The notes beneath the pieces were generated by a model. The model worked only from the letters and a program-made list of their open reading frames with translations. It ran no database searches and had not been told where the DNA came from. A stretch of 64,000 bases of DNA from Candidatus Gottesmanbacteria bacterium (lineage in GTDB: Bacteria > Patescibacteriota > Microgenomatia > UBA10105 > UBA927), in NCBI GenBank assembly GCA_963701185.1, contig OY969569.1, forward strand, positions 667,548 through 731,547. The letters are read 5' to 3'. Positions 9,817 to 63,298 of the stretch are shown piece after piece. Position 1 is the first letter of the stretch; each line of letters opens with the position of its first letter. Position numbers and translations under genes: made by a program.

Positions 9817-9846
9817 TTGACAAACACAGCCTCTTCCCTTTTTAAT
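9817..9846 (+). promoter_or_regulatory. candidate sigma70-type promoter TTGACA-N18-TTTAAT for the giant gene
   Basis: TTGACA at 9817-9822 and TTTAAT at 9841-9846. The TTG that opens the ORF-track ORF at 9817 is this -35 hexamer. The first in-frame ATG downstream is at 9934. Confidence 0.35.
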
Positions 9847-9933
9847 AAGAGTAGGCCTAAATTCCCCGATGACATCTATAGACAAAGTAGTGACAACCGG
9901 AAGCCGGTTTTTGCTACGAAATTATTTTTTGGT

Positions 9934-22047
<12,114 letters not shown>

Positions 22048-42607: not shown

Positions 42608-43213
42608 GTGGAAAACGATATGTCTCCGTATAAAAAAGTCATTGCGATAGCGGTCGCGATTACCGTTATCGGTATCATTCTTGTCCTGGTCCATTATCAG
42701 CAAATTTCAGGCAGGACCGGCTCCATCGTCATTCCCGCCGGCAATACCTACCTCGGCCCCACACCGACACAATCCCCGACGAGTGACACATGGCAGACGG
42801 TCAAAGGAAACATCTATCCCTACGCGATGAGTGTTCCTGCATCGCTTACGCTTACCACGTTCCCTAATGACCCGTACGATATGTACGCGATTGCCGGCCG
42901 CGACCCTGAATCAAATGTCCTCATCGGTATTGACACGAAAGCCAATCCGTCAGAGACCAAATCAGCGTATATCCAAAGCTGGCGGAAACAGTTCAGTGTA
43001 CTGACCGGCGTCAAAAGCATTGATCCGTTTACCAACAGCAAGGGGCTCAAGGGATACAAAGTAAAATTTCTCAACGCCGGCGGCGAAAGCCCGAATTCCG
43101 ATATCTTTTTTGAAGTGCCGGACAAACCTCAATACGTCATTCATCTGAGTAACGGACCGCTTGACGGAACCGTATTTGACACCATCGTTGACAGCGTCGG
43201 ATGGAACCAATAA
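42608..43213 (+). CDS. membrane-anchored extracytoplasmic protein of unknown function
   Basis: N-terminal TM helix VIAIAVAITVIGIILVLV followed by a soluble ~170-aa domain. Confidence 0.4.
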   Translation: MENDMSPYKKVIAIAVAITVIGIILVLVHYQQISGRTGSIVIPAGNTYLGPTPTQSPTSDTWQTVKGNIYPYAMSVPASLTLTTFPNDPYDMYAIAGRDPESNVLIGIDTKANPSETKSAYIQSWRKQFSVLTGVKSIDPFTNSKGLKGYKVKFLNAGGESPNSDIFFEVPDKPQYVIHLSNGPLDGTVFDTIVDSVGWNQ

Positions 43214-45087
43214 TGAAAAAGTCATCCCTGCCGATCCTGATGACTGCCGGCTTTATTATTTCCTTATTTATCCGGCTTCTATTGATTCCCAATCCCGGTT
43301 TTGAGGCGGATGTCGCATTCTGGAAATCGTGGGGGCTTGCCGTATTGGATTTTGGGATCGTCAAAGGCTTATTAGTCACCAATTTCAACTACCCCACCCC
43401 ATTCGGGTATTTCCTTGCACTCATGCCCGCCGCGTACCGGCTATTTGCAGACCCCCATAATTTCAGCCAATATTGGCAAAATACAAACCTATTATTTTTA
43501 ATCGTGGCCAAACTTCCGGCAATTATCGCCGACTTCGGCATTGCGGGTATTATTCTCTGGATCGGGAAAAACGTTCACTCCGATAAAATCGGAGCAGGAA
43601 AAATCAATTTTCCCGATATGCCATATACGATATACGCTCTTTTCGCTCTTGTCTATCTTCTCAATCCCGTTTCCTGGATGGACAGCGCATGGTGGGGTCA
43701 GGTCGATAGTCTCGGCGTCATTGTCTTTTTAGGAGCGTTTCTCCTTGTTGTCACCAAAAAACCATTTCTGGCAGGCATGATCTATATGTTGGCCATGATG
43801 ACCAAACTCCAGAATATGATTTACGGGCCCATCTTTTTCCTGTTTATCTGGCAATATATAGGGTTTGACGGACTCGTAAAAAGCATTGCGGGATCACTCA
43901 TCACGTTTGCCGGCCTGAATATCGAATTTATCCTTTCCGGCAACTCATGGAAGGTTATAGAATCTCTGACAGGCAATTACGACTATTTCCCGTGGCTGTC
44001 CCTCAATGCGTTCAATCTCTGGTGGACCGTCTCCGGCGCCCGGGGAATGCAGTTTTCCGACAAATTGCTTTCGGTGGGACTTGCCAATGCAAAAACCGTC
44101 GGACTCACTCTTTTTTCCGCCGGTTATTTATTGGCGGCGCTGATACTAAAACCATTTGCATTTCTTACAAAGCATACAGACGATGCCCCTACCATCACAT
44201 ACCGGTTTCTTACCGCCCTTGTCGTTGCTAACGCGTCTTTTTTCCTGTTTCAGACGGAATCGCATGACCGCTATGCGTTCCCGCTCATTGTTTTCTTACT
44301 CCTTTGGGGTATCTTTTGGATCCGCCGACACCTCACGGTAAAAGAACTCCCCCGCGTTTTTTCAAGCTCTCCGTTCCGTTCATTCATGATTCTTTATTCA
44401 TTATTCAGTATTCCTTATTTCTACAATCTTCATACGGCACTGGTCTTTAATTATCCTCATAACGGCATGCCCATCCTCTCGACCTTCATCCAACCCAATC
44501 TGACTATCAGTGTTTCCCTTCTTTTCATCGGGTTATTTTTCTTCTTTGTATACGTCATACGGCGCGACACGGGAATGTGGACATTCGCGATACCTGCGGC
44601 GCTGGTGATTTTTGCACTGCTTGCAAAAAATATACCGCTTGTCACCCGTACGCCGGTTTCCCTTACGGCCATGACACCGGTGTCTGCATCCCAGGATTAC
44701 GGAATACGGCAAATAAATATGCCGGTCAACGCATATGCAGGATTTGATAAATGGGGATCTCTATCGGTCCAATATGCATTCTATCGACACGGGATCGGCA
44801 CCCATGCCAAAAGTACGCAGATATTTGATCTCCAGAAATATTTTACCAGGTTTTCCTTCGACTACGGCATTGACACCGAGGCCGGCCCCAGAGGAAGTGT
44901 TACATTTGAAGTCTACGGTGATGACAAAAAACTTTTCGCATCGGAAAAAATCGGCCGGTATGATTTACCTCGCCACGCTGACGTAAGCGTGGCGGGCATA
45001 CATCTGTTGAAACTGGTCGTCACGGATGCAGGAGACGGCATTACGGACGACCATGCCGATTGGCTGAATCCGAAATTATATCCATAG
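43201..45087 (+). CDS. large GT-C-like polytopic membrane protein with C-terminal NPCBM-like carbohydrate-binding module
   Basis: More than 10 TM helices and a first-loop acidic motif NPGFEADVAFW. The C-terminal 110 aa (GSVTFEVYGDDKKLF...LKLVVTDAGDGITDDHADWLNPKLYP) resemble the NPCBM/F5-8-like beta-sandwich. Confidence 0.5.
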   Translation: MEPIMKKSSLPILMTAGFIISLFIRLLLIPNPGFEADVAFWKSWGLAVLDFGIVKGLLVTNFNYPTPFGYFLALMPAAYRLFADPHNFSQYWQNTNLLFLIVAKLPAIIADFGIAGIILWIGKNVHSDKIGAGKINFPDMPYTIYALFALVYLLNPVSWMDSAWWGQVDSLGVIVFLGAFLLVVTKKPFLAGMIYMLAMMTKLQNMIYGPIFFLFIWQYIGFDGLVKSIAGSLITFAGLNIEFILSGNSWKVIESLTGNYDYFPWLSLNAFNLWWTVSGARGMQFSDKLLSVGLANAKTVGLTLFSAGYLLAALILKPFAFLTKHTDDAPTITYRFLTALVVANASFFLFQTESHDRYAFPLIVFLLLWGIFWIRRHLTVKELPRVFSSSPFRSFMILYSLFSIPYFYNLHTALVFNYPHNGMPILSTFIQPNLTISVSLLFIGLFFFFVYVIRRDTGMWTFAIPAALVIFALLAKNIPLVTRTPVSLTAMTPVSASQDYGIRQINMPVNAYAGFDKWGSLSVQYAFYRHGIGTHAKSTQIFDLQKYFTRFSFDYGIDTEAGPRGSVTFEVYGDDKKLFASEKIGRYDLPRHADVSVAGIHLLKLVVTDAGDGITDDHADWLNPKLYP

Positions 45088-45099
45088 TTTTGGGTTGTC

Positions 45100-45161
45100 A
45101 TTCCCGCGCAGGCGGGAATCGGTATTTGTTTTGAACGCAGATCCCCGATCAAGTCGGGGAT
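45100..45161. repeat. two tandem hairpins ATTCCCGC-gcag-GCGGGAAT and ATCCCCGA-tcaag-TCGGGGAT
   Basis: Two perfect 8-bp inverted repeats 21 nt apart, in the intergenic region just upstream of the 45172 start. Same family as the 30302-30320 element. Confidence 0.5.
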
Positions 45162-45171
45162 GACAAGAAAA

Positions 45172-47442
45172 ATGAAACATATTGAAAAATATATCAGTAT
45201 CGCAATGCTCCTTTTTGCCGTCGGATGTAACCTGTGGTTGTTCCGCTCCGAACCCACGGCAAAAGTGGACCCGAATGACAATACATTCCAGTTTGCTCTG
45301 GTCTACCGGACAAACCAAATATGGGATTTTGCACAGCAAAAGTGTTCATACAATCCCGTATGTTTTTTCTCCTATCTTGCCGATCATTGGGTCCCGAATT
45401 GGAACGAAGGGTACAATCTCCCCTTCTATTATTCTCATATTCCCCAAATTGTCATTGTAGGCACGTGGCGGTTACTATCTTCGACTATTTCGCTTTTTGC
45501 GTATTACCATCTCGTCATCTATCTCCTCCTCTCTGTCTTTCCGATTTCGGTATTTTTGGCGTTGCGGGTCGCCGGATTTTCATGGCTTACCGCCGGTTTT
45601 GGAGCGATTCTTGCATCCCAAATCTCGACAGACGGGCTATACGGCCTTGACCCGTCGTCGTTTTTGTGGCGTGGCTACGGCCTCTCGAGCCAACTGTTTG
45701 CCATGATCTGGCTTCCGATTGCTCTCGCATACTGCTATAAGGCGCTCACAAACAAACGGGCAATCATTCCCGCAATTATTTTCGTACTTTTTACCACGGC
45801 GGGGCATCTTGGTATCGGTATGATGACATTTTTGGCCCTTATTCCCCTGGCTCTGGCCGCGCCCATCCTGGCATTTTTTCAAAAACAATCAGTACAAAAC
45901 ATATTCGGCCCTCTGAAAAAAAACGCAGTGACCATCGGTATTATCGGGGCAGCCGCAATCGGGTTCTTAAGCTACTGGATCCTGCCGGCAATGTCCCTCG
46001 ACCGGTTCCACAACTTTTCCTTCTGGGATCCGGTGTGGAAATTTAATTCCTACGGCGTCAAAGAAGTAATCATACGATTATTCAACGGCGCGCTGTTTGA
46101 TTTTGGCAGACTGCCGGTCTTTACTGGGTTGGTTTTTATTGGTTTATTCATTATTCATGATTCATCATTCACTATTCTCTTTATTTTCTTTCTCCTCCTC
46201 TACGTCGGCAGAACAACATGGGGAAATTTGTTTGACATCATCCCCGGGATGAAGGAATTCCATTTATCGCGTTTTATCGTCGGCGTACATATCGCAGGGC
46301 TCTTTTTAGCACCGATCGGACTTGCATGGATTATTGAGAAGATTAAAAAATTTATTGGATTATTTGCTTATTTGCTTATTGGATTATTGGTAGTATTCGT
46401 TTATCCCCAAACCGTCCGCTATGCCGCATACAACGATACGCTTATTGCGAAAGCCAACGACAACTATGCCAAACAGGCAACGGGAGCAAATAGTTTGATT
46501 GCGGCTCTGCAGGAACTGGAACAAAAAGCCCCCGGCCGGGTATTTTCAGGGCGCGGCGGCGGCTGGGGAAAAGATTTTAAGATCGCCGAAACTACGATGA
46601 CGATGTATCTGGGGAACTTTGGACTACCCACGGTTCTCTGGATGCCGGAGACGTGGTCACCAAATGCCGATACCGAACAGTATTTCAGGGAAGATAAGGA
46701 AGAAGATTATGACCTGTATAATATCCGCTACGTGGCAACACCGGTAGGTATAGCGAAAGAAAATATCCAGCCGTTCTGGAAAGTAATACAAGAAAATCCT
46801 TCATGGAAGATCTATGAGGTACCGACATCCGGTTACTTTACTGCAGGTGTACGGCCTGCGGTGGTTGCATCCGACAAATACTCCCGCGCCAATGTCGTCC
46901 GGCTCTGGATCCAATCCAGCGACCCCAAAAACGGCCTCTATCCGGAACTCTCGTTCGACACAAAAAAATACCCGGTCAATGTCGGACTGCCGAACTTCAA
47001 AATGATTGATGAAGTAACGTTTCAGGTGCCGGACGGCTCCACCCACAACCTTTTTTCCGAACCACCAAAGTATCTCTCCCTTATCACCCCTAGCTCCCTT
47101 ATCTCCCTTAGTTCCCAGACTAATGATACGGATATGGTTTTTTCTACTCATGTGAAGGTAGCGGAGGGCTGCACCGAATGTATAGTTATATTAAAACAAA
47201 CCTACCACCCCAACTGGCAGGTCACGGTTGACGGAAAATCAGTAACCCCGATCATCACGTTCCCGTTTTTCATCGGGATTCCGGTAAGTGCAGGAAACCA
47301 CACTATTGTGGCCTCATATAAACCATCGAACGTAAAAGTTATATTGTTATCTATCTCCCTGATTACCCTTATTTCCTTTACTCTTTGGTTTCTCGCCCGA
47401 AAACTGGGGATTGACATGAGCACACAAAATACTGCAAACTAA
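45172..47442 (+). CDS. large polytopic membrane protein (YfhO/GT-C-like) with extracytoplasmic C-terminal beta-rich domain
   Basis: Start MKHIEKYISIAMLLFAVG at 45172. The ORF-track start 45160 lies inside the hairpin. More than 12 TM helices, then a ~330-aa soluble region and a C-terminal TM. Confidence 0.5.
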   Translation: MKHIEKYISIAMLLFAVGCNLWLFRSEPTAKVDPNDNTFQFALVYRTNQIWDFAQQKCSYNPVCFFSYLADHWVPNWNEGYNLPFYYSHIPQIVIVGTWRLLSSTISLFAYYHLVIYLLLSVFPISVFLALRVAGFSWLTAGFGAILASQISTDGLYGLDPSSFLWRGYGLSSQLFAMIWLPIALAYCYKALTNKRAIIPAIIFVLFTTAGHLGIGMMTFLALIPLALAAPILAFFQKQSVQNIFGPLKKNAVTIGIIGAAAIGFLSYWILPAMSLDRFHNFSFWDPVWKFNSYGVKEVIIRLFNGALFDFGRLPVFTGLVFIGLFIIHDSSFTILFIFFLLLYVGRTTWGNLFDIIPGMKEFHLSRFIVGVHIAGLFLAPIGLAWIIEKIKKFIGLFAYLLIGLLVVFVYPQTVRYAAYNDTLIAKANDNYAKQATGANSLIAALQELEQKAPGRVFSGRGGGWGKDFKIAETTMTMYLGNFGLPTVLWMPETWSPNADTEQYFREDKEEDYDLYNIRYVATPVGIAKENIQPFWKVIQENPSWKIYEVPTSGYFTAGVRPAVVASDKYSRANVVRLWIQSSDPKNGLYPELSFDTKKYPVNVGLPNFKMIDEVTFQVPDGSTHNLFSEPPKYLSLITPSSLISLSSQTNDTDMVFSTHVKVAEGCTECIVILKQTYHPNWQVTVDGKSVTPIITFPFFIGIPVSAGNHTIVASYKPSNVKVILLSISLITLISFTLWFLARKLGIDMSTQNTAN

Positions 47443-47702: not shown

Positions 47703-47775
47703 GGGCCTGTAGCACAGCTGGTAATGCGCCGCATTCGCATTGCGGAGATCAGCGGTTCGATTCCGCTCAGGTCCA
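47703..47775 (+). tRNA. tRNA-Ala (anticodon CGC)
   Basis: Hand-folded cloverleaf: acceptor GGGCCTG/CAGGTCC with G3:U70, anticodon stem CCGCA/TGCGG, loop TTCGCAT, T-arm AGCGG-TTCGATT-CCGCT. Confidence 0.75.
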
Positions 47776-47779
47776 CACC

Positions 47780-47850
47780 GGGCCCGTAGTATACCGGTAG
47801 AACGACTCCATGGCATGGAGTAGAAAGGGGTTCAATTCCCCTCGGGTCCA
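47780..47850 (+). tRNA. tRNA-Ala (anticodon GGC)
   Basis: Acceptor GGGCCCG/CGGGTCC with G3:U70, anticodon stem ACTCC/GGAGT, loop ATGGCAT, T-arm AGGGG-TTCAATT-CCCCT. D-arm pairing is weak in the hand fold. Confidence 0.6.
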
Positions 47851-47861
47851 CAAAAAGGGTA

Positions 47862-51995: not shown

Positions 51996-54026
51996 TTATT
52001 GCAACTGGTAAATAACGGTTTCTCCCGACGTAAATACCGCCTTCCCCAATTCTTTAAACTTCGTTTCCTGCATGTTGGTAAATTTCTGCCGTTCCAGCGT
52101 TCCCACAAAAATATATCGGACGTTGTATTTGGCAAGGATTTGCTGTGTTTGGACACTATCCGGCGACTCGTATATCAGCCGCACCTCCTCTTTCCGCGGC
52201 GCCACAACATCGTAACTGCCGCGCCAGAGCCATTCATGCACCGACCAGCCGACAATCGTCGGAAACCCGGTAAACGCGCTCACCTGATTGTAATCGGTAT
52301 AACTGTCCCCGTCCGCCTCGACTATAACTGGTAATCCAGTTGTAGTCGCCCCGCGAAGCTTTAGCGAAGTGGGGCTACCTATTTGTGTATTGAGCCATTG
52401 AATCGCAGCCCAATTATCCGGATATTGAGCCTTAATCCACCCGGCCCCGTTAATCCCCTCATAGACCTTCAGGCTGTTGAAATACGACCGGACACTGAAA
52501 ATGGGGTAAATGGACACAAGAAATAATTGCGGCAGAAGCAGAAGCAAAAAGATTTTATTGCGGAAAAATTTGACAATCGCGTATCCTGCGACGATCGAGA
52601 ACAGGATAAATGCGTCATATCCTAGTTTGAACATGGTATTACTTCTGAAGTGCATGGGATAAATGTCTTTAAAGTAGAAAAATTCGGGGAAGATGATAAG
52701 AGCAAGAGAAAAGAAGAAGAAAACGGTAAGAAGCAGATTTTTTTTCTTCGAAAACAAGAGCCAGGCGCCGCAATAGATGAAAAATCCCCACAGAAGCCAC
52801 ATCATCCACAGCGGGCTGTGCTGACACTTCTCCACTCCCTCAAACAAAATCGGTCCGATTTTCGTATCGGCAAGCCCCGAGGGAGGACAATTGACGGCAA
52901 GACCCGTGACAAATGATTTGAAATACAGGATAAACGGCAGACTGCACAGGATTGTTGTAATAATGGTGATGCCGCCCACAATTGCCGTCTTTTCCCAATT
53001 TATTATTTTAAATTGCGCATTGTGCATTACCAAAATTATCAGGAATAACCCGAGGTATATCGGCCCGTCGAGCGCATTGGTCATCAGAAGTACACTGCAT
53101 AAGAATCCATAAAAGATAAGAAAAAAATAATGGATTTTTTTGTCCCCCCACATTTTTATCAGCAGCGCTATAGCAAGCAATACAAACGGGATCGACAGTA
53201 CGTGCCCGTGGACATCCGATACCACAAACGAGTAGCTCGGAAATTCATGGATCGTATACGGGATAAAGCGTGTGGCATTGGCATACCAGTAGCGGGCAAA
53301 ATCCATCTTCCCCAAAAGCGTCCAGAACGGCACAACCTGGTCCCCATCATACCCTTTGGTAAACGCATAAATCGTTTGCATGTTTCCCGCGAGGGTCACA
53401 AGAAATGCGGTGAGTATCCCCCCGGAAATTTTCTTGGTCAGTTGTCTTCCGATTGTAAAACTCATGGTGAAACAGAAGGCAAAAATCGCCGCCAGCATGA
53501 GATTAAACGTGTAGGTGAGATCAATGCCGGAAAGGCGGGTTAAGACTGCCATGACGGTATGTCCGAAGTAGTAGTAATTGATGGAACTCCCGGCATACCA
53601 CATGTCGGGGGCCGGAAAAAAGCGGCTATCCAAAATGGATTTGGTAAACCCGAAGTCCATAAACTTTTCGAGGTTATGGATACTCGGTTCATGCGCCTTC
53701 ACCCAACTCCAAAACAGAAGACACAAGAAGAAAAAGATTTCTTCCAGAATTATCCCCTTATCTCCCCGATTTCCCTTATCTCCCCTATTGCCTACAACTC
53801 CCCCAATAAAAACAATAAGTAAAGCAAAAAAAATAGACAATTGCGTAAACGGAATAATGTGGAGAACGCCTCCCAAATACACAAGATACGTCACCGCCGC
53901 CATCCCTACGGCTTTGGAAAAAGAATACGATAGTCCCAATCTGCGGGTTAACGGATATGCCGCCGCACCGACTAAAAAAAGCATCCCCCACCATTGGAAA
54001 ACAATAAGAAAGTCCGACATCGGCAT
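51996..54026 (-). CDS. large polytopic membrane protein, GT-C-like paralog family member
   Basis: 676 aa with more than 12 TM helices. C-terminal ...YNVRYIFVGTLERQKF...GETVIYQLQ motif. Confidence 0.55.
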   Translation of the reverse strand: MPMSDFLIVFQWWGMLFLVGAAAYPLTRRLGLSYSFSKAVGMAAVTYLVYLGGVLHIIPFTQLSIFFALLIVFIGGVVGNRGDKGNRGDKGIILEEIFFFLCLLFWSWVKAHEPSIHNLEKFMDFGFTKSILDSRFFPAPDMWYAGSSINYYYFGHTVMAVLTRLSGIDLTYTFNLMLAAIFAFCFTMSFTIGRQLTKKISGGILTAFLVTLAGNMQTIYAFTKGYDGDQVVPFWTLLGKMDFARYWYANATRFIPYTIHEFPSYSFVVSDVHGHVLSIPFVLLAIALLIKMWGDKKIHYFFLIFYGFLCSVLLMTNALDGPIYLGLFLIILVMHNAQFKIINWEKTAIVGGITIITTILCSLPFILYFKSFVTGLAVNCPPSGLADTKIGPILFEGVEKCQHSPLWMMWLLWGFFIYCGAWLLFSKKKNLLLTVFFFFSLALIIFPEFFYFKDIYPMHFRSNTMFKLGYDAFILFSIVAGYAIVKFFRNKIFLLLLLPQLFLVSIYPIFSVRSYFNSLKVYEGINGAGWIKAQYPDNWAAIQWLNTQIGSPTSLKLRGATTTGLPVIVEADGDSYTDYNQVSAFTGFPTIVGWSVHEWLWRGSYDVVAPRKEEVRLIYESPDSVQTQQILAKYNVRYIFVGTLERQKFTNMQETKFKELGKAVFTSGETVIYQLQ

Positions 54027-54058: not shown

Positions 54059-55246
54059 ATGAAAGTTGCCGTTATCGGGGGTGGATTCACGGGACTTAGC
54101 GCAGCCTACGAACTCACCAAACGCGGCCATGCCGTCACCCTTTTTGAAGCCGGTCCCGTCTTGGGCGGGCTGGCGCACGGATTCAGGCAACCGCATTGGC
54201 AATGGAACCTGGAATATTCCTACCATCATTGGTTTACCAATGACCGGGCGGCATTGAAATTAATCGAAGAGTTAGGGCTAAAAAATAAAGTAATTATCAA
54301 ACGTCCGGTAACGGCAAATCTCTACAACGGAAAAACTTATCAACTCGACTCTCCATTATCTCTTCTCCGATTTCCCCTATTACCCTTATTTGATAAGGCG
54401 CGTACCGCGGCGCTCTTAGGATTTCTAAAAATCACACCGTTTTGGAAACCATTGGAACAAATTACCGCTGAACAGCTTTTAACCTCAATAGGAGGAAAAC
54501 GTGCATATCAGGTGCTTTGGGAACCTCTCTTGGTTGGCAAATTCGGCAGCTTCGCGCCAAAAATTCAGGCGGCCTGGTTTTGGGCAAGAATTAAAAAACG
54601 GACATCAAGCCTTATGTACATGGAGGGCGGATTCAAAACGCTTATCGATGCACTGGAACGCGCTATAATAAAACAAGGCGGGAAAATATATACAAATAAG
54701 AAAATCTCTTCAATGAAAAATATAAGCGGTTTTGATACAACGCTTTTTACCGGTCCCACACCGCACACTCCCATCCCCCACCTATGGGCACAGACACTTG
54801 TTGTAGAAACAAAAGAACCGATTCTCGGGGATATCTATTGGCTCAATATCACCGACCGGTCTTACCCGTTCCTTGCCGCTGTCGCACACACCAATTTCAT
54901 GGATAAAAAATACTACGGCGGCCGCCACCTGACCTATTTCGGCAACTACCTGCCGGAAGGCCACAAATATTTATCAATGACGAAAGAAAAATTATTAAAA
55001 GAGTTTTTGCCATTTATTAAAAAAATTGGAAATTGGAAATTGGAAATTGTGAATTCTTTTATGTTCACCGCACCCCACGCCCAGCCGGTCCACGAACTCC
55101 GGTATTCAGCGCGTGCGCCGAAGATGGAAACAGCAATCCCCAACGTCTATCTTGCCAATATGGACAGTATTGTCCCCTGGGACCGCGGAACAAATTACGC
55201 CATTGAACTGGGCCAAAAAGCCGCGCAAAAAATCATGGAGCAATGA
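54059..55246 (+). CDS. FAD/NAD(P)-binding oxidoreductase (amine oxidase / HemY-CrtI-like)
   Basis: N-terminal Rossmann MKVAVIGGGFTGLSAAYELTKRGHAVTLFEAGPVLGG (GxGxxG ... E ... GG). Confidence 0.6.
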   Translation: MKVAVIGGGFTGLSAAYELTKRGHAVTLFEAGPVLGGLAHGFRQPHWQWNLEYSYHHWFTNDRAALKLIEELGLKNKVIIKRPVTANLYNGKTYQLDSPLSLLRFPLLPLFDKARTAALLGFLKITPFWKPLEQITAEQLLTSIGGKRAYQVLWEPLLVGKFGSFAPKIQAAWFWARIKKRTSSLMYMEGGFKTLIDALERAIIKQGGKIYTNKKISSMKNISGFDTTLFTGPTPHTPIPHLWAQTLVVETKEPILGDIYWLNITDRSYPFLAAVAHTNFMDKKYYGGRHLTYFGNYLPEGHKYLSMTKEKLLKEFLPFIKKIGNWKLEIVNSFMFTAPHAQPVHELRYSARAPKMETAIPNVYLANMDSIVPWDRGTNYAIELGQKAAQKIMEQ

Positions 55247-56838
55247 AAAAAATACTTATTCTCATCATTCTCTCCGGAGCAGTCTTTCGCTTTACGGCGG
55301 TCAACTGGGACTCCTTCGGCGCGTTTCATCCGGATGAACGGAATATTTCCTGGGCGGTAACACGGATTCGGTTTTTTACCCAAATGAATCCGGGGTTTTT
55401 TGCCTATGGGGGTCTCCCGATTTATCTCTATCGCGCATTGGGTGAGAGAGTCGTGGCTATTACCCATAATCCTCTGTGGCTCACCGACTGGGGATATATT
55501 GCGGTCATAGGACGGTACGTCTCGGCAACATTGTCGACGTGTAGCATTTTCCTTATCTATCTTGTGGGTTCGTTATATTTCTCCTCTGCGGCCGGAGTTC
55601 TGGCGGCCGCATTCCTTGCTTTTTCTCCGTGGGCTATACGGGAAGCACATTTTCAAACAACGGAAACCATGCTCGTGTTTTTTATACTTCTCCTCCTGAT
55701 TCTCGCAAAAAAAATAACGACGAAGCGCGCCCTGGCGCTTGGTTTTGTTTGGGGTCTGGCTATGGCCGCCAAAACTACAAGCGCTCTTTTCGGAATTATT
55801 CCCTTCGTGGCAATCTGGCTTCCTCATTTTCCTAAAAAATTTCCGAGAAAAATTTTGTATACGTACTTCCTGTTGGGTTTCGCCGCTATTATCTTTTACA
55901 TATTCTCCCCATATACCATCCTGGATTTTACGCATTTCCGGCAGTCCATGACCTATGAATCAGGAGTCGCCCTGGGGCGTTTTACGGTACCGTACACGCT
56001 TCAATTTTTACACACCGCCCCGTACCTGTATCAACTGCAAACAATGCTCTGGCAGGCGGGACCTCTCCTTATCCCGGGAATATTCGGTCTTATTGGAGTA
56101 TTGATCACGGCGCTCGTCAGAAAAAAATCATTATTTTTTATATTTTTGGTATTCCCCTTTCTCTATTTTGGCTGGGTTGGCTCATGGTTTGCCAAATTCA
56201 ACCGGTATAACGTGCCGTTTTTGCCATTTGTGACTCTCGCCGCAGCATGGCTCTGTGTTGTATGTATAAAACATTTTCGTCTTGCCGGTCTTGCTTTCAC
56301 CGCTCTCTTCCTTGGCTCCACTCTTGTATGGGGACTGGCCAATTGGACGGTGTATCTACGGCCCCAAACACGCATGAATGCAACCGAATGGATGCTTACT
56401 CATATTCCCGCCGGCGCCCGCATCTATACCGAACACTGGAATGACGGTTTACCAGTAGATGTCCCTCATGCAGTTCCGTATCAACGGGAACTATTGATGA
56501 TCTATGATGAGGATAATGCTGACAAAAAAATCTACTATGCGGACAAACTGGTGGCGGGCGATTTCATCATCCTCTCAACGCGCCGCATGTGGGCCACCAT
56601 GCCGCGGTTGGGTGAAAAATATCCGCTGACGAAATTGTTTTACCGGCGTCTGTTGGATGGATCATTAGGATACAAAGAAGTGGCAACATTTACGTCCTAT
56701 CCTCATCTATTCGGCGTGCAGATAAACGACGATTCTGCGGAAGAATCCATCCAGGTCTTTGACCACCCGACGGTACGGATTTTCCAAAACACCGGACGTT
56801 TTACCCGCGAACAATTCTTCACATTGCTCACGCCATAA
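55243..56838 (+). CDS. GT39/ArnT-like (GT-C) polytopic membrane glycosyltransferase-like protein
   Basis: HPDERN acidic motif in the first extracytoplasmic loop, more than 11 TM helices and a C-terminal soluble domain ending ...FDHPTVRIFQNTGRF. Confidence 0.55.
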   Translation: MKKILILIILSGAVFRFTAVNWDSFGAFHPDERNISWAVTRIRFFTQMNPGFFAYGGLPIYLYRALGERVVAITHNPLWLTDWGYIAVIGRYVSATLSTCSIFLIYLVGSLYFSSAAGVLAAAFLAFSPWAIREAHFQTTETMLVFFILLLLILAKKITTKRALALGFVWGLAMAAKTTSALFGIIPFVAIWLPHFPKKFPRKILYTYFLLGFAAIIFYIFSPYTILDFTHFRQSMTYESGVALGRFTVPYTLQFLHTAPYLYQLQTMLWQAGPLLIPGIFGLIGVLITALVRKKSLFFIFLVFPFLYFGWVGSWFAKFNRYNVPFLPFVTLAAAWLCVVCIKHFRLAGLAFTALFLGSTLVWGLANWTVYLRPQTRMNATEWMLTHIPAGARIYTEHWNDGLPVDVPHAVPYQRELLMIYDEDNADKKIYYADKLVAGDFIILSTRRMWATMPRLGEKYPLTKLFYRRLLDGSLGYKEVATFTSYPHLFGVQINDDSAEESIQVFDHPTVRIFQNTGRFTREQFFTLLTP

Positions 56839-57193: not shown

Positions 57194-57394
57194 TCAGAGC
57201 GTAAACACCGGTATACTTAATCCCTTGTCTTTTAACTTCTGAAACTGCTCTTTCACCTCTGCCTCAAACCGCTCCCTATCCTGTGCAATCGGAGATTTCC
57301 GCTTGTCTATCCCAACCAAACCTAATCGCTGAAAAAAATATTTTATGTTCATACACCCATTCAAACACGTCAGCAATTCCTTGTCAAGTCCCAT
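57194..57394 (-). CDS. small hypothetical protein (66 aa)
   Basis: ORF only, ending at the terminator. No recognisable motif. Confidence 0.25.
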   Translation of the reverse strand: MGLDKELLTCLNGCMNIKYFFQRLGLVGIDKRKSPIAQDRERFEAEVKEQFQKLKDKGLSIPVFTL

Positions 57395-57564: not shown

Positions 57565-58914
57565 ATGAAAAAAATATTTGTTTTTATCTTATATTATTTT
57601 CTGATACTGATATATACTCCTTATCCTGTGTACGCCGCTCCAAAACCACTGACGGGCACATTTATTTTTCCTGATTTTTCGATAACCGATCAGAACACCA
57701 TGGATACATTTTTGGACGGCATCAAAGCACTTGGTATGGATACGTTGATCTGGGGTTATTCAGGTGTAGTCTATAAATCTGACTGTTCCAGCCCGAACTA
57801 CATTGAGAATAATTTTTTCACTGAAAATCGTTCTAATTATTTAGAAAACGCGGATAAATTATTGACATCGTTACATAATAAAGGACTGTCTGTCTATATA
57901 GGACTTGCCGGAACATGGAAATGTATTAATGTCGCTTCCGGAAACCCGAATGATCCGAATACGGATCAGGGGAGAGTGATCGATTTATCAAAACGGTTGA
58001 TAGGTAAACTTAAAGAGTTGAGTCTTGCTAAAGGTTGGGAGTGGGACGGAAATTTTATCAAAGGATTTTACATCCCTGAGGAGCTGGAGATCCATAAATT
58101 TTATACGGGGCCGGGTGCCTGGACTGACTACTTTAATTTTTATAAAAATTTTTCCTCTACGATAAAAAATCTTTATCCTTCAAAACTTATTATGCTTTCT
58201 CCCTATCAATATGAGTGGTATAGCTACCAAACTGTGTATGACAATATGAAATACGCCGTACAAAATTTAGATATTGATATATATGCTCCTCAGGATTCTG
58301 TGGGAGCCGGGAATGTTGTCAGTTATACCAGCGATCAGGAACATTTTCGCGGACTATCTGATGCAGTCCGTGATGGCAATATCCAATACAATAAACGGGT
58401 GCAGGCGTGGGCAAATATTGAAACATTTTCACCGTCGCTTGATGGCGGTGCTAGTTTTCCGCCTGCAAAATTCGAAACACTCAATTGGCAGCTTCAGGCG
58501 GTTGATGGTTTCGTTTCTAAAAAAATAACCTGGTTGTATTCCTGGGGTTTTGCCAATGACCCAATCCTTACCAATAATGGGCCGCATTACACTCCTGATT
58601 ATGCGATAAAACGAAACCAACTAAGAAATGCTTATATCGCTCTTATCCCCTCTCCTTCTGTAACAATCACCCCCACTCCAACGTCTACCCCCACCCCGAC
58701 CCCTACACGTACTCCAACTCCTACTAACACTCCACCCGCTCCTAAACCAGGCGACCTCAACAGAGACGGCAGGGTAGATATTTATGACTACAACATATTG
58801 GTTGCCGACTTCGGCAAAACCGGTTCTCCCGGTTGGATTCCGGCAGATATCACGAAAGACGGCAAAGTGGATATTTATGACTATAATCAGCTTATTACAT
58901 TTTTCGGAAAGTAA
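57565..58914 (+). CDS. secreted dockerin-containing protein with N-terminal TIM-barrel-like (DUF4434/glycoside-hydrolase-like) domain
   Basis: Signal peptide MKKIFVFILYYFLILIYTPYPVYA. PT-rich linker TPTPTSTPTPTPTRTPTPTNTPP. Two dockerin calcium-binding repeats DLNRDGRVDIYDYNIL and DITKDGKVDIYDYNQL. Confidence 0.65.
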   Translation: MKKIFVFILYYFLILIYTPYPVYAAPKPLTGTFIFPDFSITDQNTMDTFLDGIKALGMDTLIWGYSGVVYKSDCSSPNYIENNFFTENRSNYLENADKLLTSLHNKGLSVYIGLAGTWKCINVASGNPNDPNTDQGRVIDLSKRLIGKLKELSLAKGWEWDGNFIKGFYIPEELEIHKFYTGPGAWTDYFNFYKNFSSTIKNLYPSKLIMLSPYQYEWYSYQTVYDNMKYAVQNLDIDIYAPQDSVGAGNVVSYTSDQEHFRGLSDAVRDGNIQYNKRVQAWANIETFSPSLDGGASFPPAKFETLNWQLQAVDGFVSKKITWLYSWGFANDPILTNNGPHYTPDYAIKRNQLRNAYIALIPSPSVTITPTPTSTPTPTPTRTPTPTNTPPAPKPGDLNRDGRVDIYDYNILVADFGKTGSPGWIPADITKDGKVDIYDYNQLITFFGK

Positions 58915-58943
58915 TATACTGTGTAGGAAGCGCGTGTTACGAT

Positions 58944-60044
58944 GTGTATATGACAAAACGTAAACCTATATATAGCACTCCGGATTCTGATGGTCCGATA
59001 GAACCAGCCGGCCAACAGGAAACGGCGCCAACATCTGCAAAAATCCGCTTTCGGTATACAAAAAAACAAACGTTGTCTCTCATGGGTATTCTGCTCCTGC
59101 TTCTTACGAGCATGGGAGTGGTAATCCTGGTACAAAAGAAAACACAGGACTTGCGGAGCCGGGCTACGCTCTCCGGCCCGAAACTTTCACTCTCACCCGC
59201 TGCGAAATCCGCAGAAACCGGGGAAACATTCTTTCTGGCAAGCACATTGGATACCGATACGGACACCGTTTCTGCCGCGGAACTGCACGTTTCGTACGAT
59301 CCTACCGCCATACAAATACTTGCGTTTACTCCGGGTGCTATATTGCCGGTTGTCCTAGTGCCGGAAACGCACGGCAACGGCGCCATATCCGTCACCCTCG
59401 GCGCGCAACCTTCGAATCCGTATAAAGGCATCGGTATTTTGGGAACATGGACAATAAAAATTCTTGCCGCAAAACAATCATCCATCAGTTACACCAACGC
59501 TACCACCCAAGTTGCAGCCATAGGAAAACCAACGAACGCACTCGTTTCAACGGCCGGAAGCACAATTACCGGAGGCACAGGCAGCACGATAACGCCTACT
59601 CCTACATCAACCCGTACCCCCACACCCACCCCCACACCGACCCCAACCTCTACACCCTCTCCTACGTCAACACCTTCCCAGGGCGCGCCCACTGCCACAC
59701 CGACCCTCACCCCCACGAGTACGCCAAAACCCACACCCACACCCACACCCACACCAAAACCCACACCCACACCAAAACCCACCCCCACACCCACACCAAG
59801 GCCGTCATTTCATCCTTTGGGCTTTTTGTACCCCACCTCAACACCTACGCCGGTCCCGCCAAAGACAACGCCATCAACGGGATTCGGTCAATTTGGTACG
59901 ACGACTCACTATCCGGTTATATCGGTGACGCCGTCTCCAACTGCATCATCTGTACCACCTGTATCACAGGCATCAACGCCAACATTTATTGACCGGCTTA
60001 TCAATTCGATCGTTTCGTTCCTCAAAAATCTGTTCGGGAAATAA
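58944..60044 (+). CDS. membrane-anchored cohesin-like domain protein with long PT-rich linker
   Basis: TM anchor LMGILLLLLTSMGVVILV. Beta-sandwich segment ETFFLASTLDT..ELHVSYDPTAIQILAFTPGAIL resembles the cohesin F.LTYDPSVLEV core. (T/S)PTP linker of ~80 aa. Confidence 0.55.
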   Translation: MYMTKRKPIYSTPDSDGPIEPAGQQETAPTSAKIRFRYTKKQTLSLMGILLLLLTSMGVVILVQKKTQDLRSRATLSGPKLSLSPAAKSAETGETFFLASTLDTDTDTVSAAELHVSYDPTAIQILAFTPGAILPVVLVPETHGNGAISVTLGAQPSNPYKGIGILGTWTIKILAAKQSSISYTNATTQVAAIGKPTNALVSTAGSTITGGTGSTITPTPTSTRTPTPTPTPTPTSTPSPTSTPSQGAPTATPTLTPTSTPKPTPTPTPTPKPTPTPKPTPTPTPRPSFHPLGFLYPTSTPTPVPPKTTPSTGFGQFGTTTHYPVISVTPSPTASSVPPVSQASTPTFIDRLINSIVSFLKNLFGK

Positions 60045-60056
60045 AAACAAGCAGAA

Positions 60057-60839
60057 CTACTTCATTCTCGCAAAAAACAGCTGGCCGGCGGCAGTCTGGT
60101 GGACTTTGGTGACAATCACGAGGATATCCTGTCCCACCCGGTCACGGGCGCCGTCTACAACGACCATAGTCCCATCTGCCAAATACCCTACTCCCTGGAC
60201 CCGTTCTTTCCCTTCGTGGGTAATTTTTACGGTGAATTCTTCGCCTGGCATCAGCGATACTTTTAACGCCTGGGCAATGTCATTAACATTGAGAATCTTG
60301 ACTCCCTGGGCCCTCGCCACATGTGCAAGGTTAAAATCAACCGTCAGTAATCTGACCTGTCTTCCGGCAGGCAGGTTTGCCCACCGCTTGGCAAGGGCAA
60401 CCAGCTTCGCATCCACTTCTTTCACTTCTGCGGGATCCGAAGACGCAATCTTGACGCGCATGAGTTTATTTACTTTCTGTCCTTTAAGTTTATTCACGAT
60501 ATCCAGACCCCTCCGTCCTTTGGCGCGGCGGAGTGAATCGTCTGAATCGGCAATATGCTGAAGCTCGCCTAAAATAAACTGCGGAATAATAAACGTACCG
60601 CTAATAAACCCGCTGTTGGCTATGGCAAGGATCCTGCCGTCAATAAGGACGCTGGTATCAACAAGAATCGGATACTCGCCCAACACGTCGTCTTTTCCGT
60701 TGGTTTTGGGCCGGCGAATGAAGGGACGCGCAGTAAACCGGCCGATATTCGTCAGATTCTTGACGATCTCGGCAGCAAGAGCCTTCGTGAACGCCTCCGG
60801 CGGCTTTACTGGTACCAATAAGTCTTTTTTGCTTTTCAC
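60057..60839 (-). CDS. PIN-TRAM domain protein (YacL-like)
   Basis: PIN-like ILVDTSVLIDGRI... and a C-terminal TRAM-like beta-barrel (GEEFTVKITHEGKERVQGVGYLADGTMVVVDGA). Positioned immediately upstream of radA as in the Bacillus yacL-radA arrangement. Confidence 0.6.
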   Translation of the reverse strand: MKSKKDLLVPVKPPEAFTKALAAEIVKNLTNIGRFTARPFIRRPKTNGKDDVLGEYPILVDTSVLIDGRILAIANSGFISGTFIIPQFILGELQHIADSDDSLRRAKGRRGLDIVNKLKGQKVNKLMRVKIASSDPAEVKEVDAKLVALAKRWANLPAGRQVRLLTVDFNLAHVARAQGVKILNVNDIAQALKVSLMPGEEFTVKITHEGKERVQGVGYLADGTMVVVDGARDRVGQDILVIVTKVHQTAAGQLFFARMK

Positions 60840-60887
60840 ACCATGGATTGTACCACAAAAAAAACAGGGGAGAACTAAGGAAAATCA

Positions 60888-62177
60888 TCACCCGATGGCC
60901 TGGCTTGCCCGTGTTACGTTATGAACAGTTTTCGAAGATATAATCGTCGTAAACCCGAGGCGGTTGGCCTCCTTCGCCCGCCGTTCATCAGAACCGATGG
61001 ACCGGATTTCCCCTAAAAGTCCTACTTCGCCGAACACTGCGGTTTTAGGATCCAACGGTTTATTTTTGAATGAAGAAAGAATTGCCAGCGCCACAGCAAG
61101 ATCCGCGGCCGGTTCCTCAATCTTCATTCCTCCACTGACGTTGACAAAAACATCAAAATTCCCGAGCGGAATATTTAATCGTTTTTGCAATATCGCGACT
61201 AACAATTGTAAACGGTTATAGTCGATCCCGTTGGCAATCCTGCGTGGCATCGCCAACTGTGACGGCACCGCAAGCGCCTGAATTTCGACGAGCATCGGCC
61301 GGGTTCCCTCCATAATAACGGTCACAATACTCCCGGGAACATTTTTTACCCGGTCCTGCAAAAATAGAGCGGATGGATTTGCTATCTCCTTCAGGCCTGT
61401 CTCGTCCATTTCGAAAATTCCCACTTCTTCGATGGCCCCGAACCGATTTTTGTACGTACGCAAAATTCTGGCATTGGCAAACCGTTCTCCCTCTAAATAC
61501 AAGACCGTATCTACCATGTGTTCAAGGACTTTCGGCCCTGCAATCGTCCCCTCCTTTGTTACGTGACCGATGATGATAATGGAAATACCTTTACGTTTGG
61601 CAACGCCCACCAAAACTTCGGCGCAATGCCGGATCTGCCCCACCGACCCTGCCATACCATCCAAATCCCCTGACGATAGTGTCTGGATGGAATCCACAAC
61701 AACAAGATTTCCCTCCAGTGCATTGACAATACTTTCAACAGACGTCTCCGCCAGTACGCTGATATTCCCGCCTTCGACACCAAGGCGTTTCGCGCGCAGT
61801 TTAATCTGTTCCGCCGATTCCTCACCGGAGACATACAAGCCGCCGCATTTAGCAATAACATGAAGAAGTAGGGTCGACTTTCCGATCCCCGGATCGCCGG
61901 CAAGAAGCGTCACCGATCCCGGCACGATCCCCCCGCCCATCACGCGGTCAAATTCCGTAAATCCGCTTTTGAGACGGTTTTTTTCAATATGTTTTACTTC
62001 TGATAGCTTTTGGGGTTTTGATGAAGAAATTTTTTTTGAAAAGATATTTTGTGTTTTTACATCTTCCTTAACTGTCTCAACCAGCGTGTTCCATTCCCCG
62101 CAATTGGGACACTTCCCGTACCAACTGGGGCTCTCAAACCCGCATTGTTGACACACATAGGACGTCCGGAGTTTCAT
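60888..62177 (-). CDS. radA: DNA repair protein RadA/Sms
   Basis: N-terminal C4 zinc finger CQQCGFESPSWYGKCPNCGEW, Walker A GDPGIGKST, KNRFG motif and Lon-like C-terminal domain. Confidence 0.9.
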   Translation of the reverse strand: MKLRTSYVCQQCGFESPSWYGKCPNCGEWNTLVETVKEDVKTQNIFSKKISSSKPQKLSEVKHIEKNRLKSGFTEFDRVMGGGIVPGSVTLLAGDPGIGKSTLLLHVIAKCGGLYVSGEESAEQIKLRAKRLGVEGGNISVLAETSVESIVNALEGNLVVVDSIQTLSSGDLDGMAGSVGQIRHCAEVLVGVAKRKGISIIIIGHVTKEGTIAGPKVLEHMVDTVLYLEGERFANARILRTYKNRFGAIEEVGIFEMDETGLKEIANPSALFLQDRVKNVPGSIVTVIMEGTRPMLVEIQALAVPSQLAMPRRIANGIDYNRLQLLVAILQKRLNIPLGNFDVFVNVSGGMKIEEPAADLAVALAILSSFKNKPLDPKTAVFGEVGLLGEIRSIGSDERRAKEANRLGFTTIISSKTVHNVTRASQAIG

Positions 62178-62254
62178 TGTGGGGATATTCTACCTTATCT
62201 TAACAACATTTGGTACATCTTCTACGGGAAAGTAGACGGTATTGACTTTAGTAT

Positions 62255-63298
62255 TTGGGTAATGCATTATGGAACGTAAGATATAACTGTATGCCAGACA
62301 AAACCTCCGCAGCAACGCATCCGCAGGATTCCCCACAAGGGAAACATACACGTGATTCTGTCATTGTCGCGGCACCACCGGAACCCTGGTACCGACGGGC
62401 TATGAGAACGGTGAAAAATCCCAAAGTCGCCCCGTACTTGGGGATCGGTTTATTTTTGGTCATCGGTCTCGTATTCACTATGGCAACCCTGTATCCACAA
62501 CAGGTCACCACTCGAGCAACAACTCATCAGGCGACGGTCACGGTACTGCCGGCAATGCTTTCCCTGCCGCCAAATGGAACCATGCAGTTATGGGCGACGA
62601 CAGACAGTCCTACGGCATTTGTCAACGTTCAACTAACCTTTAATCCTGCGGTCGTGAAGTTAACGGCGGAGATAACCCTGACGACGTCAGCCTGGGGAAG
62701 AGTCATCAAACAAACCACCATGGCTGATGCCAACGCCTCAGGCAAAATAGATCTGGTCATAGGACTGGATCCGACGCACGTCCAAACTCCCCCCAACGGG
62801 ACATTCCAGCTTGCAACCCTGCAGTTCGGAGCAAATACAACAAATCCTAATGTAACCACCACCGTCGTCGCGTCTGCCTCGTCCCAACTGGCGGCAGTAG
62901 ATGCGACAGTTTTTACCCTTACCTCTGTCGGCAGTACCATTACCGTGAATCCTCTCACCACCCCGACCTTAGGGGTCACTCCAACCGTGACACCGACACC
63001 TCCGCCCAACGACACTACCCCGCCGGTGGTGACCATCACAACACCTACAGACGGATCCGTCGTCCCGGATAAAGGCAGTATGTCCATTAAGATCACGGCA
63101 TCCGACAGCAGCGGTATTGCCACCATTACAATCGCCCTGGACGGCACCGTCACCAAAACCTGTACCGGAGCAACCACTTGTCAGGTCAATACCGCAGTCA
63201 ATAAACTTGCGGTCGGGAGCCATACGATCACAGCTTCCGCCACGGACAACAGTACGAACAAAAACACCGCCTCAACAACCATCAGTGTGACGAAATAA
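62255..63298 (+). CDS. membrane-anchored cohesin-like plus Ig-like (Big) domain surface protein
   Basis: TM VAPYLGIGLFLVIGLVFTMATL. Segment LWATTDSPTAFVNVQLTFNPAVVKLTAE is cohesin-like. PT linker, then Ig-like beta domain (SMSIKITASDSSGIATITIALDG...HTITASATD). Confidence 0.5.
   Translation: MGNALWNVRYNCMPDKTSAATHPQDSPQGKHTRDSVIVAAPPEPWYRRAMRTVKNPKVAPYLGIGLFLVIGLVFTMATLYPQQVTTRATTHQATVTVLPAMLSLPPNGTMQLWATTDSPTAFVNVQLTFNPAVVKLTAEITLTTSAWGRVIKQTTMADANASGKIDLVIGLDPTHVQTPPNGTFQLATLQFGANTTNPNVTTTVVASASSQLAAVDATVFTLTSVGSTITVNPLTTPTLGVTPTVTPTPPPNDTTPPVVTITTPTDGSVVPDKGSMSIKITASDSSGIATITIALDGTVTKTCTGATTCQVNTAVNKLAVGSHTITASATDNSTNKNTASTTISVTK

Follow-up and report, generated by a model that had tools for sequence, protein, structure and literature searches.

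A probable two-gene cohesin–dockerin surface display for predicted glycan-active enzymes in a Candidatus Gottesmanbacteria genome

We analysed a 64,000-bp stretch of DNA (the window; contig OY969569.1, positions 667,548 to 731,547) from Candidatus Gottesmanbacteria, a member of the Candidate Phyla Radiation (CPR)/Patescibacteria. Near its end lie three genes, designated P1, P2 and P3, which encode a predicted glycan-active enzyme with a C-terminal dockerin and two predicted cell-bound proteins with one cohesin fold each. An earlier note on this DNA had described a dockerin protein flanked by two membrane-anchored, cohesin-like proteins. The ORF (open reading frame) list of the window contains all three where they had been placed; however, the dockerin gene is not flanked, as both cohesin genes are located downstream of P1. 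The genes and their parts, with the gene that bounds the locus upstream, are as follows.

57565..58914 (+): P1, the predicted cargo enzyme, 449 aa; a predicted secreted DUF4434–dockerin protein, both domains above their Pfam gathering scores.
57565..57636 (+): signal-peptide-like segment of P1, with MKK, a hydrophobic core and ...VYA/AP; Kyte-Doolittle peak at aa 4–22.
57652..58542 (+): DUF4434 glycoside-hydrolase-like (beta/alpha)8-type domain of P1 (Pfam, aa 30–326).
58645..58752 (+): Pro/Thr-rich linker of P1, read off the translation.
58753..58911 (+): dockerin of P1, two near-identical repeats of a calcium loop plus helix; the loops begin at 58753 and 58846.
58944..60044 (+): P2, predicted cell-bound single-cohesin protein, 366 aa; start at GTG 58944 or ATG 58950.
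59079..59141 (+): predicted transmembrane (TM) or signal-anchor helix of P2; hydropathy aa ~42–66, AlphaFold2 (AF2) helix aa 40–71.
59181..59576 (+): cohesin domain of P2 (Pfam, family profile, AF2 and Foldseek).
59577..59984 (+): long Pro/Thr-rich linker of P2, ~135 aa (aa 212–347); predicted to be disordered, with predicted local distance difference test (pLDDT) values of 39–72 and no secondary structure.
59985..60038 (+): conserved C-terminal amphipathic helix of P2 (TFIDRLINSIVSFLKNLF); AF2 helix aa 348–365, pLDDT 82–86.
62291..63298 (+): P3, second predicted cell-bound protein, with a divergent cohesin fold and Big_7; 335 aa, the ORF opening at 62255.
62432..62494 (+): predicted TM or signal-anchor helix of P3 (hydropathy, aa ~56–80 of the 347-aa ORF).
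62510..62956 (+): cohesin-fold domain of P3, roughly 150 aa, unseen by Pfam (hhalign, AF2 and Foldseek).
63023..63235 (+): Big_7 bacterial Ig-like domain of P3 (Pfam PF17957, E 4.5e-12, aa 257–327).
55243..56838 (+): PMT_2 gene (Pfam PMT_2; GT-C protein mannosyltransferase-like), the conserved upstream boundary of the locus.

The dockerin of P1 was recognized by Dockerin_1 (PF00404) with 30.5 bits against a gathering score of 22.9 (aa 395–445), confirming the two calcium-loop repeats that had been noted after the Pro/Thr linker. The loops, DLNRDGRVDIYD at aa 397 and DITKDGKVDIYD at aa 428, are each followed by YN.L(V/I)..FGK, and the unit of an EF-hand-like loop of 12 residues (D-x-[ND]-x-[DN]-G-x-[VI]-[DN]-x-x-D) plus a helix is present as a tandem duplicate. 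The two repeats are near-identical, including the helix start VDIYDYN. A phmmer search matched a solved dockerin (2y3n_B, E 7.5e-4), and a relaxed loop pattern occurred three times in the six frames of the window, two of these occurrences being those of P1. The N-terminal signal peptide of P1 is predicted, from its sequence, to be cleaved after VYA.

The catalytic part of P1 matched DUF4434 (PF14488) with 80.9 bits against a gathering score of 30 (E 1.5e-22, aa 30–326), in agreement with the DUF4434-like hydrolase-type domain proposed earlier. Its subfamily is small, with 83 clusters at E ≤ 1e-3 among 1.84 billion representatives, and 48 of 49 relatives matched the DUF4434 hidden Markov model (HMM). 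The family profile matched PDB entry 4h41 (‘putative alpha-L-fucosidase’) over the whole domain (E 8.2e-16). Seven residues (Y169, E173, Q243, D244, G247, W282 and E286) were invariant in the 49 aligned relatives; E173 and E286 would fit a retaining glycosidase. Dockerin_1 tails were found in 15 of these relatives and SLH tails in four, suggesting that different lineages tether this catalytic domain differently and that dockerin and SLH serve as alternative surface tethers.

The family of P2 comprised 336 homologues, nearly all close ones carrying PF00963. P2 itself matched Cohesin (PF00963) with 25.9 bits against a gathering score of 24.1 (aa 86–202), and its orthologues scored higher (31.9–36.4 bits). 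The family profile matched solved cohesins by sequence (3l8q, E 1.7e-11; also 2vn5, 1g1k, 6kg8 and 1ohz). AF2, run with a 39-sequence alignment, predicted a beta-sandwich at aa 80–211 with pLDDT 91–98, and the model together with Foldseek pointed to the nine-stranded flattened beta-sandwich (jelly-roll) of cohesins. The top 42 Foldseek matches in the PDB were all cohesins, the best being Clostridium acetobutylicum CohA2 (6kgc_A; E 1e-10, template modelling score (TM-score) 0.80, root-mean-square deviation 2.2 Å, 22% identity); the non-cellulosomal Archaeoglobus cohesin 2xdh gave a TM-score of 0.79. The C-terminal 18 residues of P2 have a hydrophobic moment of 0.66 and a mean hydrophobicity of 0.28. 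A similar amphipathic tail was found in most of the 18 closest homologues and, among all ORFs of related loci L001–L017 and the window, it was restricted to P2-type cohesin proteins.

P3 likely starts at 62291 and not at 62255; the resulting 335-aa form equals P0121, a protein present in public data. Its parts are, in order, the TM segment, the cohesin-fold domain, a short Pro/Thr linker (~20 aa) and Big_7 at the end; the long Pro/Thr linkers previously ascribed to both anchored proteins are thus confined to P2 (aa 212–347). The cohesin-fold domain escaped sequence searches. P3 had no Pfam Cohesin match even at E ≤ 1, none of 17 close homologues carried PF00963, and the family profile matched no solved cohesin by sequence. 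No significant BLASTP match was obtained between P2 and P3 or between P3 and a Big_13 cohesin protein; a protein search with the P3-domain profile added four distant members and revealed no Pfam-annotated cohesin as a bridge.

The relationship between P2 and P3 was detected solely by profile and fold methods. With hhalign, the P3 family (alignment A1) and the P2 family (A2) were aligned over 167 columns with a probability of 98.8% (E 4.6e-17), a score that comes partly from the common TM and juxtamembrane segment. AF2, given P3-family sequences only, produced a best model of the domain with pLDDT 90.2 and a predicted TM-score of 0.82; the other four models were less confident. The top 49 Foldseek matches in the PDB were all cohesins (TM-scores 0.6–0.74), the best being 6kgf_C (TM-score 0.73, E 2.9e-8). 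Judged from profile and predicted fold, P3 is a genuine but divergent cohesin, and the P3-type proteins are a second cohesin subfamily, invisible to Pfam. HMM searches for Cohesin and Dockerin_1, which the earlier note had suggested, thus found the dockerin of P1 and the cohesin of P2 above threshold and missed P3, and the cohesin fold claimed for both anchored proteins was predicted for each by AF2 and Foldseek. P2 and P3 carry one cohesin each; HMM scans found no further cohesin in the window ORFs.

We then considered how P2 and P3 are held at the cell. Membrane anchoring, as described earlier, agrees with the hydropathy of both proteins and with the AF2 helix of P2, provided that the helix is retained. 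Both proteins have long, basic-rich segments ahead of the hydrophobic helix, and in the P3 family a motif before it, PEPWY..KNPKVAPY, is conserved (A1) and predicted to be cytoplasmic. Such N-termini speak against cleavage as a signal peptide and in favour of a signal-anchor that is retained. Directly after the helix, both families (A1 and A2), including distant Moranbacteria-type homologues, share a juxtamembrane Q-x-x-R-x-(R/K)-A motif with an invariant or near-invariant Ala. It is located at 59142–59165 in P2 (aa 67–74) and at 62495–62518 in P3; the P2 form is Q-x-x-R-x-R-A, with Ala74 invariant in A2. With a charged c-region of 11 residues, the motif does not resemble a standard signal-peptidase I site; it might serve as a processing or sorting signal particular to the lineage.

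Two topologies would fit P2. In the one that we favour, by about two to one, P2 would be a type II membrane protein whose cohesin lies at the membrane face, and its tail would either fold back onto the membrane or have another binding partner. In the other, the N-terminal segment would be cleaved off as a signal peptide, the cohesin would be distal and P2 would be anchored by its amphipathic tail. Either way, the P2 cohesin would be cell-associated. A Pfam scan and inspection of the C-termini found no SLH domain and no LPXTG/sortase signal on P2 or P3; a C-terminal LPxTG/IPxSG-like motif followed by a TM segment, resembling a sortase signal, was seen only in distant P2 homologues. By analogy with actinobacterial Pmt enzymes, on which the idea is modelled, we speculate that the PMT_2 product might O-glycosylate the Pro/Thr linkers.

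P2 starts 29 nt past the P1 stop, and the spacer contains a Shine-Dalgarno-like AGGAAG. A promoter/terminator scan, itself no better than shuffles, found no terminator-like site in the spacer. Since the spacer is short, carries AGGAAG and contains no terminator-like site, P1 and P2 are probably co-transcribed. P3 begins 3.3 kb further downstream; between P2 and P3 lie a PIN-TRAM gene and radA, which are encoded on the other strand.

To examine the conservation of this arrangement, we gathered related loci via homologues, a genome scan and a metagenome scan, and searched them with custom HMMs and the dockerin-loop pattern. The scans were seeded by a closer cohesin set (A5), the broad alignment (A4) being too divergent for this use. 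Of 22 distinct loci with a close P2-type cohesin and sufficient DNA ahead of it, ~17 had one to four dockerin-terminated genes on the same strand directly upstream of the P2-type cohesin gene; the chance background for the loop motif is ~0.015 matches per equivalent stretch. The dockerin-then-cohesin order was seen in L001, L004, L006, L008–L011 and metagenome loci. Many of the metagenome relatives came from Hainich groundwater samples. The closest genomic locus was L006, a Candidatus Gottesmanbacteria record whose cohesin is 83% identical to P2. There, as in the window, the order is DUF2298, FAD oxidase, PMT_2, dockerin gene, cohesin, PIN-TRAM, radA, P3-type cohesin and S1, so the P3 orthologue occupies the same post-radA position. 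PMT_2 was the upstream neighbour also in L001 and L004.

The cargo differed among these loci. Dockerins were 50–76% identical to that of P1 and cohesins 42–82% identical to P2, whereas the catalytic parts had no similarity to that of P1. The cargo modules were GH43, F5/8 type C, GH2-like TIM, GH32N-like, BNR/sialidase-like, beta-helix/GH141, an SASA esterase with a glycoside hydrolase (GH) core, and DUF7705. Keeping plug and socket while swapping the cargo is as expected of a cognate tethering pair. Some relatives also encode proteins with both modules. In L011 (7843–11943), three tiers were found: an enzyme–dockerin protein, then a signal peptide–cohesin–Pro/Thr linker–dockerin protein, and then a TM–cohesin–Pro/Thr linker protein with a P2-like C-terminal tail. 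The cohesin proteins of L001 (P0009; 8001–8927) and L012 (6240–7118) end in dockerin-like repeats.

Several features of these loci are recorded here as observations in their own right. P0009 has unusual long-loop repeats, DITGEEGVPDGVVDLFDY, and the dockerin type in L012 and P0014, DLNGDGKISVIDY, is unlike that of their cargo genes. Two cargo proteins (L004 3100–4689 and L001 4920–6344) have ‘one-and-a-half’ dockerins: the first loop and helix are intact, and the second repeat lacks the calcium-binding loop (...FGKPYTIYDYNLFVENFGK and ...FGNPYTIFDYNILVGNFGK). The post-radA slot of L001 (13414–16927), occupied by P3 in the window, encodes a Peptidase_S8 protein of 1401 aa that matches Dockerin_1 weakly, suggesting that dockerins are not confined to glycan-active enzymes in this lineage. 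Loci L007 and L009–L012 have a CPR-type operon and housekeeping neighbours, yet their records are titled ‘uncultured Gammaproteobacteria’ or ‘Pseudomonadales bacterium’; they are probably mislabelled or mis-binned metagenome-assembled genomes. Upstream of the dockerin–cohesin genes and divergent from them, a 66-aa ORF (57194–57394, −) is located between PMT_2 and P1. It is 71–76% identical in L001, L004 and L006, its C-terminus ERFEAEVKEQFQKLKDKGLSIPVFTL is nearly invariant, and it may encode a small regulator. The 727-bp gap upstream of P1 gave no match in Rfam.

Taken together, we consider it probable, at about 70%, that P1 and P2 form a two-gene, non-cellulosomal, monovalent cohesin–dockerin system that displays predicted glycan-active enzymes at the surface of a CPR/Patescibacteria cell. 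P1 would be exported via its N-terminal signal peptide as a DUF4434 glycoside-hydrolase-like enzyme with a Pro/Thr linker and a two-repeat, calcium-binding dockerin. P2 would be held at the cell by its N-terminal signal-anchor helix, possibly also by the C-terminal amphipathic helix, and would present one type-I-like cohesin. With the P1 dockerin plugged into this cohesin, the enzyme would act on the surface of the cell, and the sugars that it releases would stay close to a very small cell. The locus could then work as a cassette, in which cohesin and dockerin are retained and a catalytic module of one to four genes is exchanged, some relatives inserting adaptors that bear both cohesin and dockerin. 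P3 would add a divergent second cohesin, also bound to the cell and combined with an Ig-like domain. For P1 and P2, the surface tethering inferred in the earlier note is thus backed by the conserved gene order (~17 of 22 loci); nothing found here ties P3 to the P1 dockerin.

Several findings weigh against this reading. The Cohesin score of P2 is marginal, 1.8 bits over the threshold, and one dockerin gene, P1, is visible in the 64-kb window by HMM scan. The P2 cohesin begins ~8 residues past the TM/juxtamembrane helix, so that a docked enzyme would sit at the membrane face and not beyond the wall, and this helix may instead be a cleaved signal peptide. No dockerin was found within 600 nt upstream of the cohesin in L007, L012, L027, L031 and L036, and none upstream of distant P2-type cohesins from Moranbacteria and others (L013–L016 and L040–L045). 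For DUF4434, a literature search found no functional data or documented activity. Other distant P2-type cohesins (L017/L046 and L022/L023) had a single loop-like match each.

The receptor of the P1 dockerin might instead be P3, or a cohesin encoded in another part of the genome, with P2 serving another dockerin and the adjacency of P1 and P2 reflecting shared regulation. P3 is also a predicted cell-bound cohesin fold nearby and is conserved in L006; moreover, P3-type domains occur fused to dockerins (P0149) whose inter-repeat linker GSPGWI resembles that of P1, and cross-specificity is not readable from sequence. However, most loci that keep the dockerin-then-P2-type order have no P3-type gene, P2-type cohesins and cargo dockerins are co-conserved across loci, and P3 is 3.3 kb away, past two opposite-strand housekeeping genes, so we regard this arrangement as unlikely. 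It is quite unlikely, too, that the cohesin-fold proteins are structural or adhesive rather than dockerin-binding and that the P1 dockerin is an orphan calcium- or wall-binding tail. The fixed order of dockerin gene and cohesin gene despite cargo turnover would be hard to explain without interaction, adaptors with cohesin plus dockerin exist in relatives, and the best structural matches of P2 and P3 are dockerin-binding cohesins solved in complex. Such a role would nevertheless fit the occurrence of cohesin-like beta-sandwiches in adhesins (the CLIPPER domain 9ifr was among the weaker fold matches), the Big_7 Ig-like domain of P3, which is typical of surface adhesins, and the long Pro/Thr linker and C-terminal helix of P2, which have no counterpart in described scaffoldins.

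A genuine minimal cellulosome for cellulose degradation is very improbable. A cohesin, a dockerin and a glycoside-hydrolase-like enzyme are all present, and two reports use the word ‘cellulosome’ for Microgenomates and Saccharibacteria genomes (PMC9123182; PMC6031116). In the window, however, we found no multi-cohesin scaffoldin, no carbohydrate-binding module (CBM; no family match in P2 or P3 at E ≤ 1), no SLH/sortase anchor on P2 or P3 and no dockerin-bearing cellulase (GH5, GH9 or GH48), the sole dockerin ORF encoding the DUF4434 protein. The cargo across loci points to diverse glycans (sialidase-like BNR, SASA esterase, GH43 and beta-helix) and not to cellulose. The strict cellulosome was rejected because its defining features were not found in the window.

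Beyond the two-gene display favoured here, we tentatively suggest that Gottesmanbacteria-type CPR may possess a lineage-specific system with three hallmarks for which scaffoldins offer no described example. The first would be monovalent cohesins with an N-terminal signal-anchor, the invariant Q-x-x-R-x-R-A and an amphipathic tail after a long Pro/Thr linker, an anchoring mode distinct from SLH and sortase. The others would be a fixed chromosomal ‘slot’ between PMT_2 and PIN-TRAM/radA for swapping dockerin-tagged enzymes, and the P3-type cohesin subfamily missed by current HMM libraries. If so, an episymbiotic, ultra-small cell could re-equip its surface with other enzymes directed at glycans of the host or the environment. 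This wider proposal is possible, with the odds against it.

The locus also illustrates a problem of annotation. The exact P1 and P3 proteins are present in public data, on a contig of 995,214 bp. P2, with any in-frame start, was not found in a collection of 15 billion proteins; look-ups with GTG or TTG starts may be unreliable, and the homology search agrees, the best database match to P2 being just 72% identical. At its place an antisense ORF was called (58937–59485, −; P0235), with 164 aa in NCBI/ENA and 182 aa in a Logan contig. The public proteins predicted for this genome thus seem to lack P2. With P2 absent from the protein set and the P3-type cohesin unseen by Pfam, annotation-based surveys under-count such systems.

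Other parts of the window contain further features. A 4076-aa ORF (9817–22047, +) is located in an island of 60–66% GC, the remaining window having ~48%. It combines, oddly, N-terminal HTH_17/MerR-type DNA-binding domains with 17 collagen triple-helix repeat stretches (E 6.6e-242). The next gene (22098–24092, +) ends in a Peptidase_S74 domain, an intramolecular chaperone also known from phage tail fibres and endosialidases. Other envelope or glycan genes encode a protein with a C-terminal NPCBM domain (43201–45087, +), a YfhO-like GT-C membrane protein (45160–47442, +) and a DUF2298 membrane protein (51996–54026, −). Two tandem tRNA-Ala genes with CGC and GGC anticodons are located at 47703–47851 (+).

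Most CPR bacteria are uncultured; they are tiny cells with a reduced metabolism, and sugar acquisition at their surface is poorly known. With a dockerin of 53 aa and a cohesin of 130 aa, the locus supplies a pair that can be cloned, and it also supplies a comparative rule, by which the cargo changes and cohesin and dockerin stay. Neither the pair nor the rule needs the organism in culture to be tested in vitro. If membrane anchoring is read correctly here, a mode would be added beyond SLH and sortase, which a review (PMC12484212) lists as the established anchors while naming new anchoring mechanisms an open topic. The understanding of what cohesin–dockerin systems do is unchanged by this locus.

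Cohesin–dockerin genes are already known in CPR Microgenomates, and the locus is no new mechanism. Cohesin and dockerin genes are reported to be expressed in Candidatus Shapirobacterales of the Microgenomates, ‘cellulosomes’ of Candidatus Roizmanbacterium are cited in the same paper (PMC9123182), and a Saccharibacterium is credited with a ‘two-subunit cellulosome’ (PMC6031116). These organisms and that of the window belong to the same superphylum and share a groundwater habitat type. In the parts consulted, these reports give domain annotations only and use the term ‘cellulosome’; a conserved operon, the TM/tail architecture and a P3-type cohesin are not described there. Our literature search, which was not exhaustive, found no description of the conserved operon, cargo exchange, tail or P3-type subfamily. 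Relative to the DUF4434 family, the P1 subfamily is distinguished by its small size and its dockerin or SLH tails.

Among characterized systems, the best structural matches of P2 and P3 are the type I pairs of simple cellulosomes (C. acetobutylicum CohA2–Doc0917, 6kgc/6kgf; C. cellulolyticum CipC–Cel5A, 2vn5), with TM-scores of 0.73–0.80. The P1 dockerin has two near-identical repeats, as in type I dockerins with a dual binding mode. The cohesins of simple cellulosomes are carried by multi-cohesin, CBM-bearing scaffoldins for cellulases, whereas here each protein has one cohesin, no CBM was found and the predicted cargo is not a cellulase. In its logic, by which single enzymes are tethered to the cell, the P2 system resembles C. 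(Acetivibrio) thermocellum OlpA/OlpC (3ul4, 4dh2), in which one type-I-like cohesin on a cell-bound protein captures an enzyme dockerin directly; both entries were also among the Foldseek matches of P3. Proteins of the OlpA/OlpC type have a C-terminal SLH anchor and a distal cohesin. In contrast, P2 has its predicted N-terminal TM helix next to the cohesin, a 135-aa Pro/Thr linker and an amphipathic C-terminal helix, with no SLH or LPXTG found, and the sequence identity to OlpA/OlpC-type cohesins is just 7–12%. The cohesin–dockerin modules of Archaeoglobus fulgidus (2xdh) and Clostridium perfringens (2jh2, 2o4e, 2ozn and 2vo8), recovered here by sequence profile and by fold, resemble the present system in working outside cellulose degradation and assembling glycan-active enzymes. 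In C. perfringens the modules are on secreted enzymes and link these to one another, whereas in the window the cohesin is on a dedicated protein predicted to be bound to the cell.

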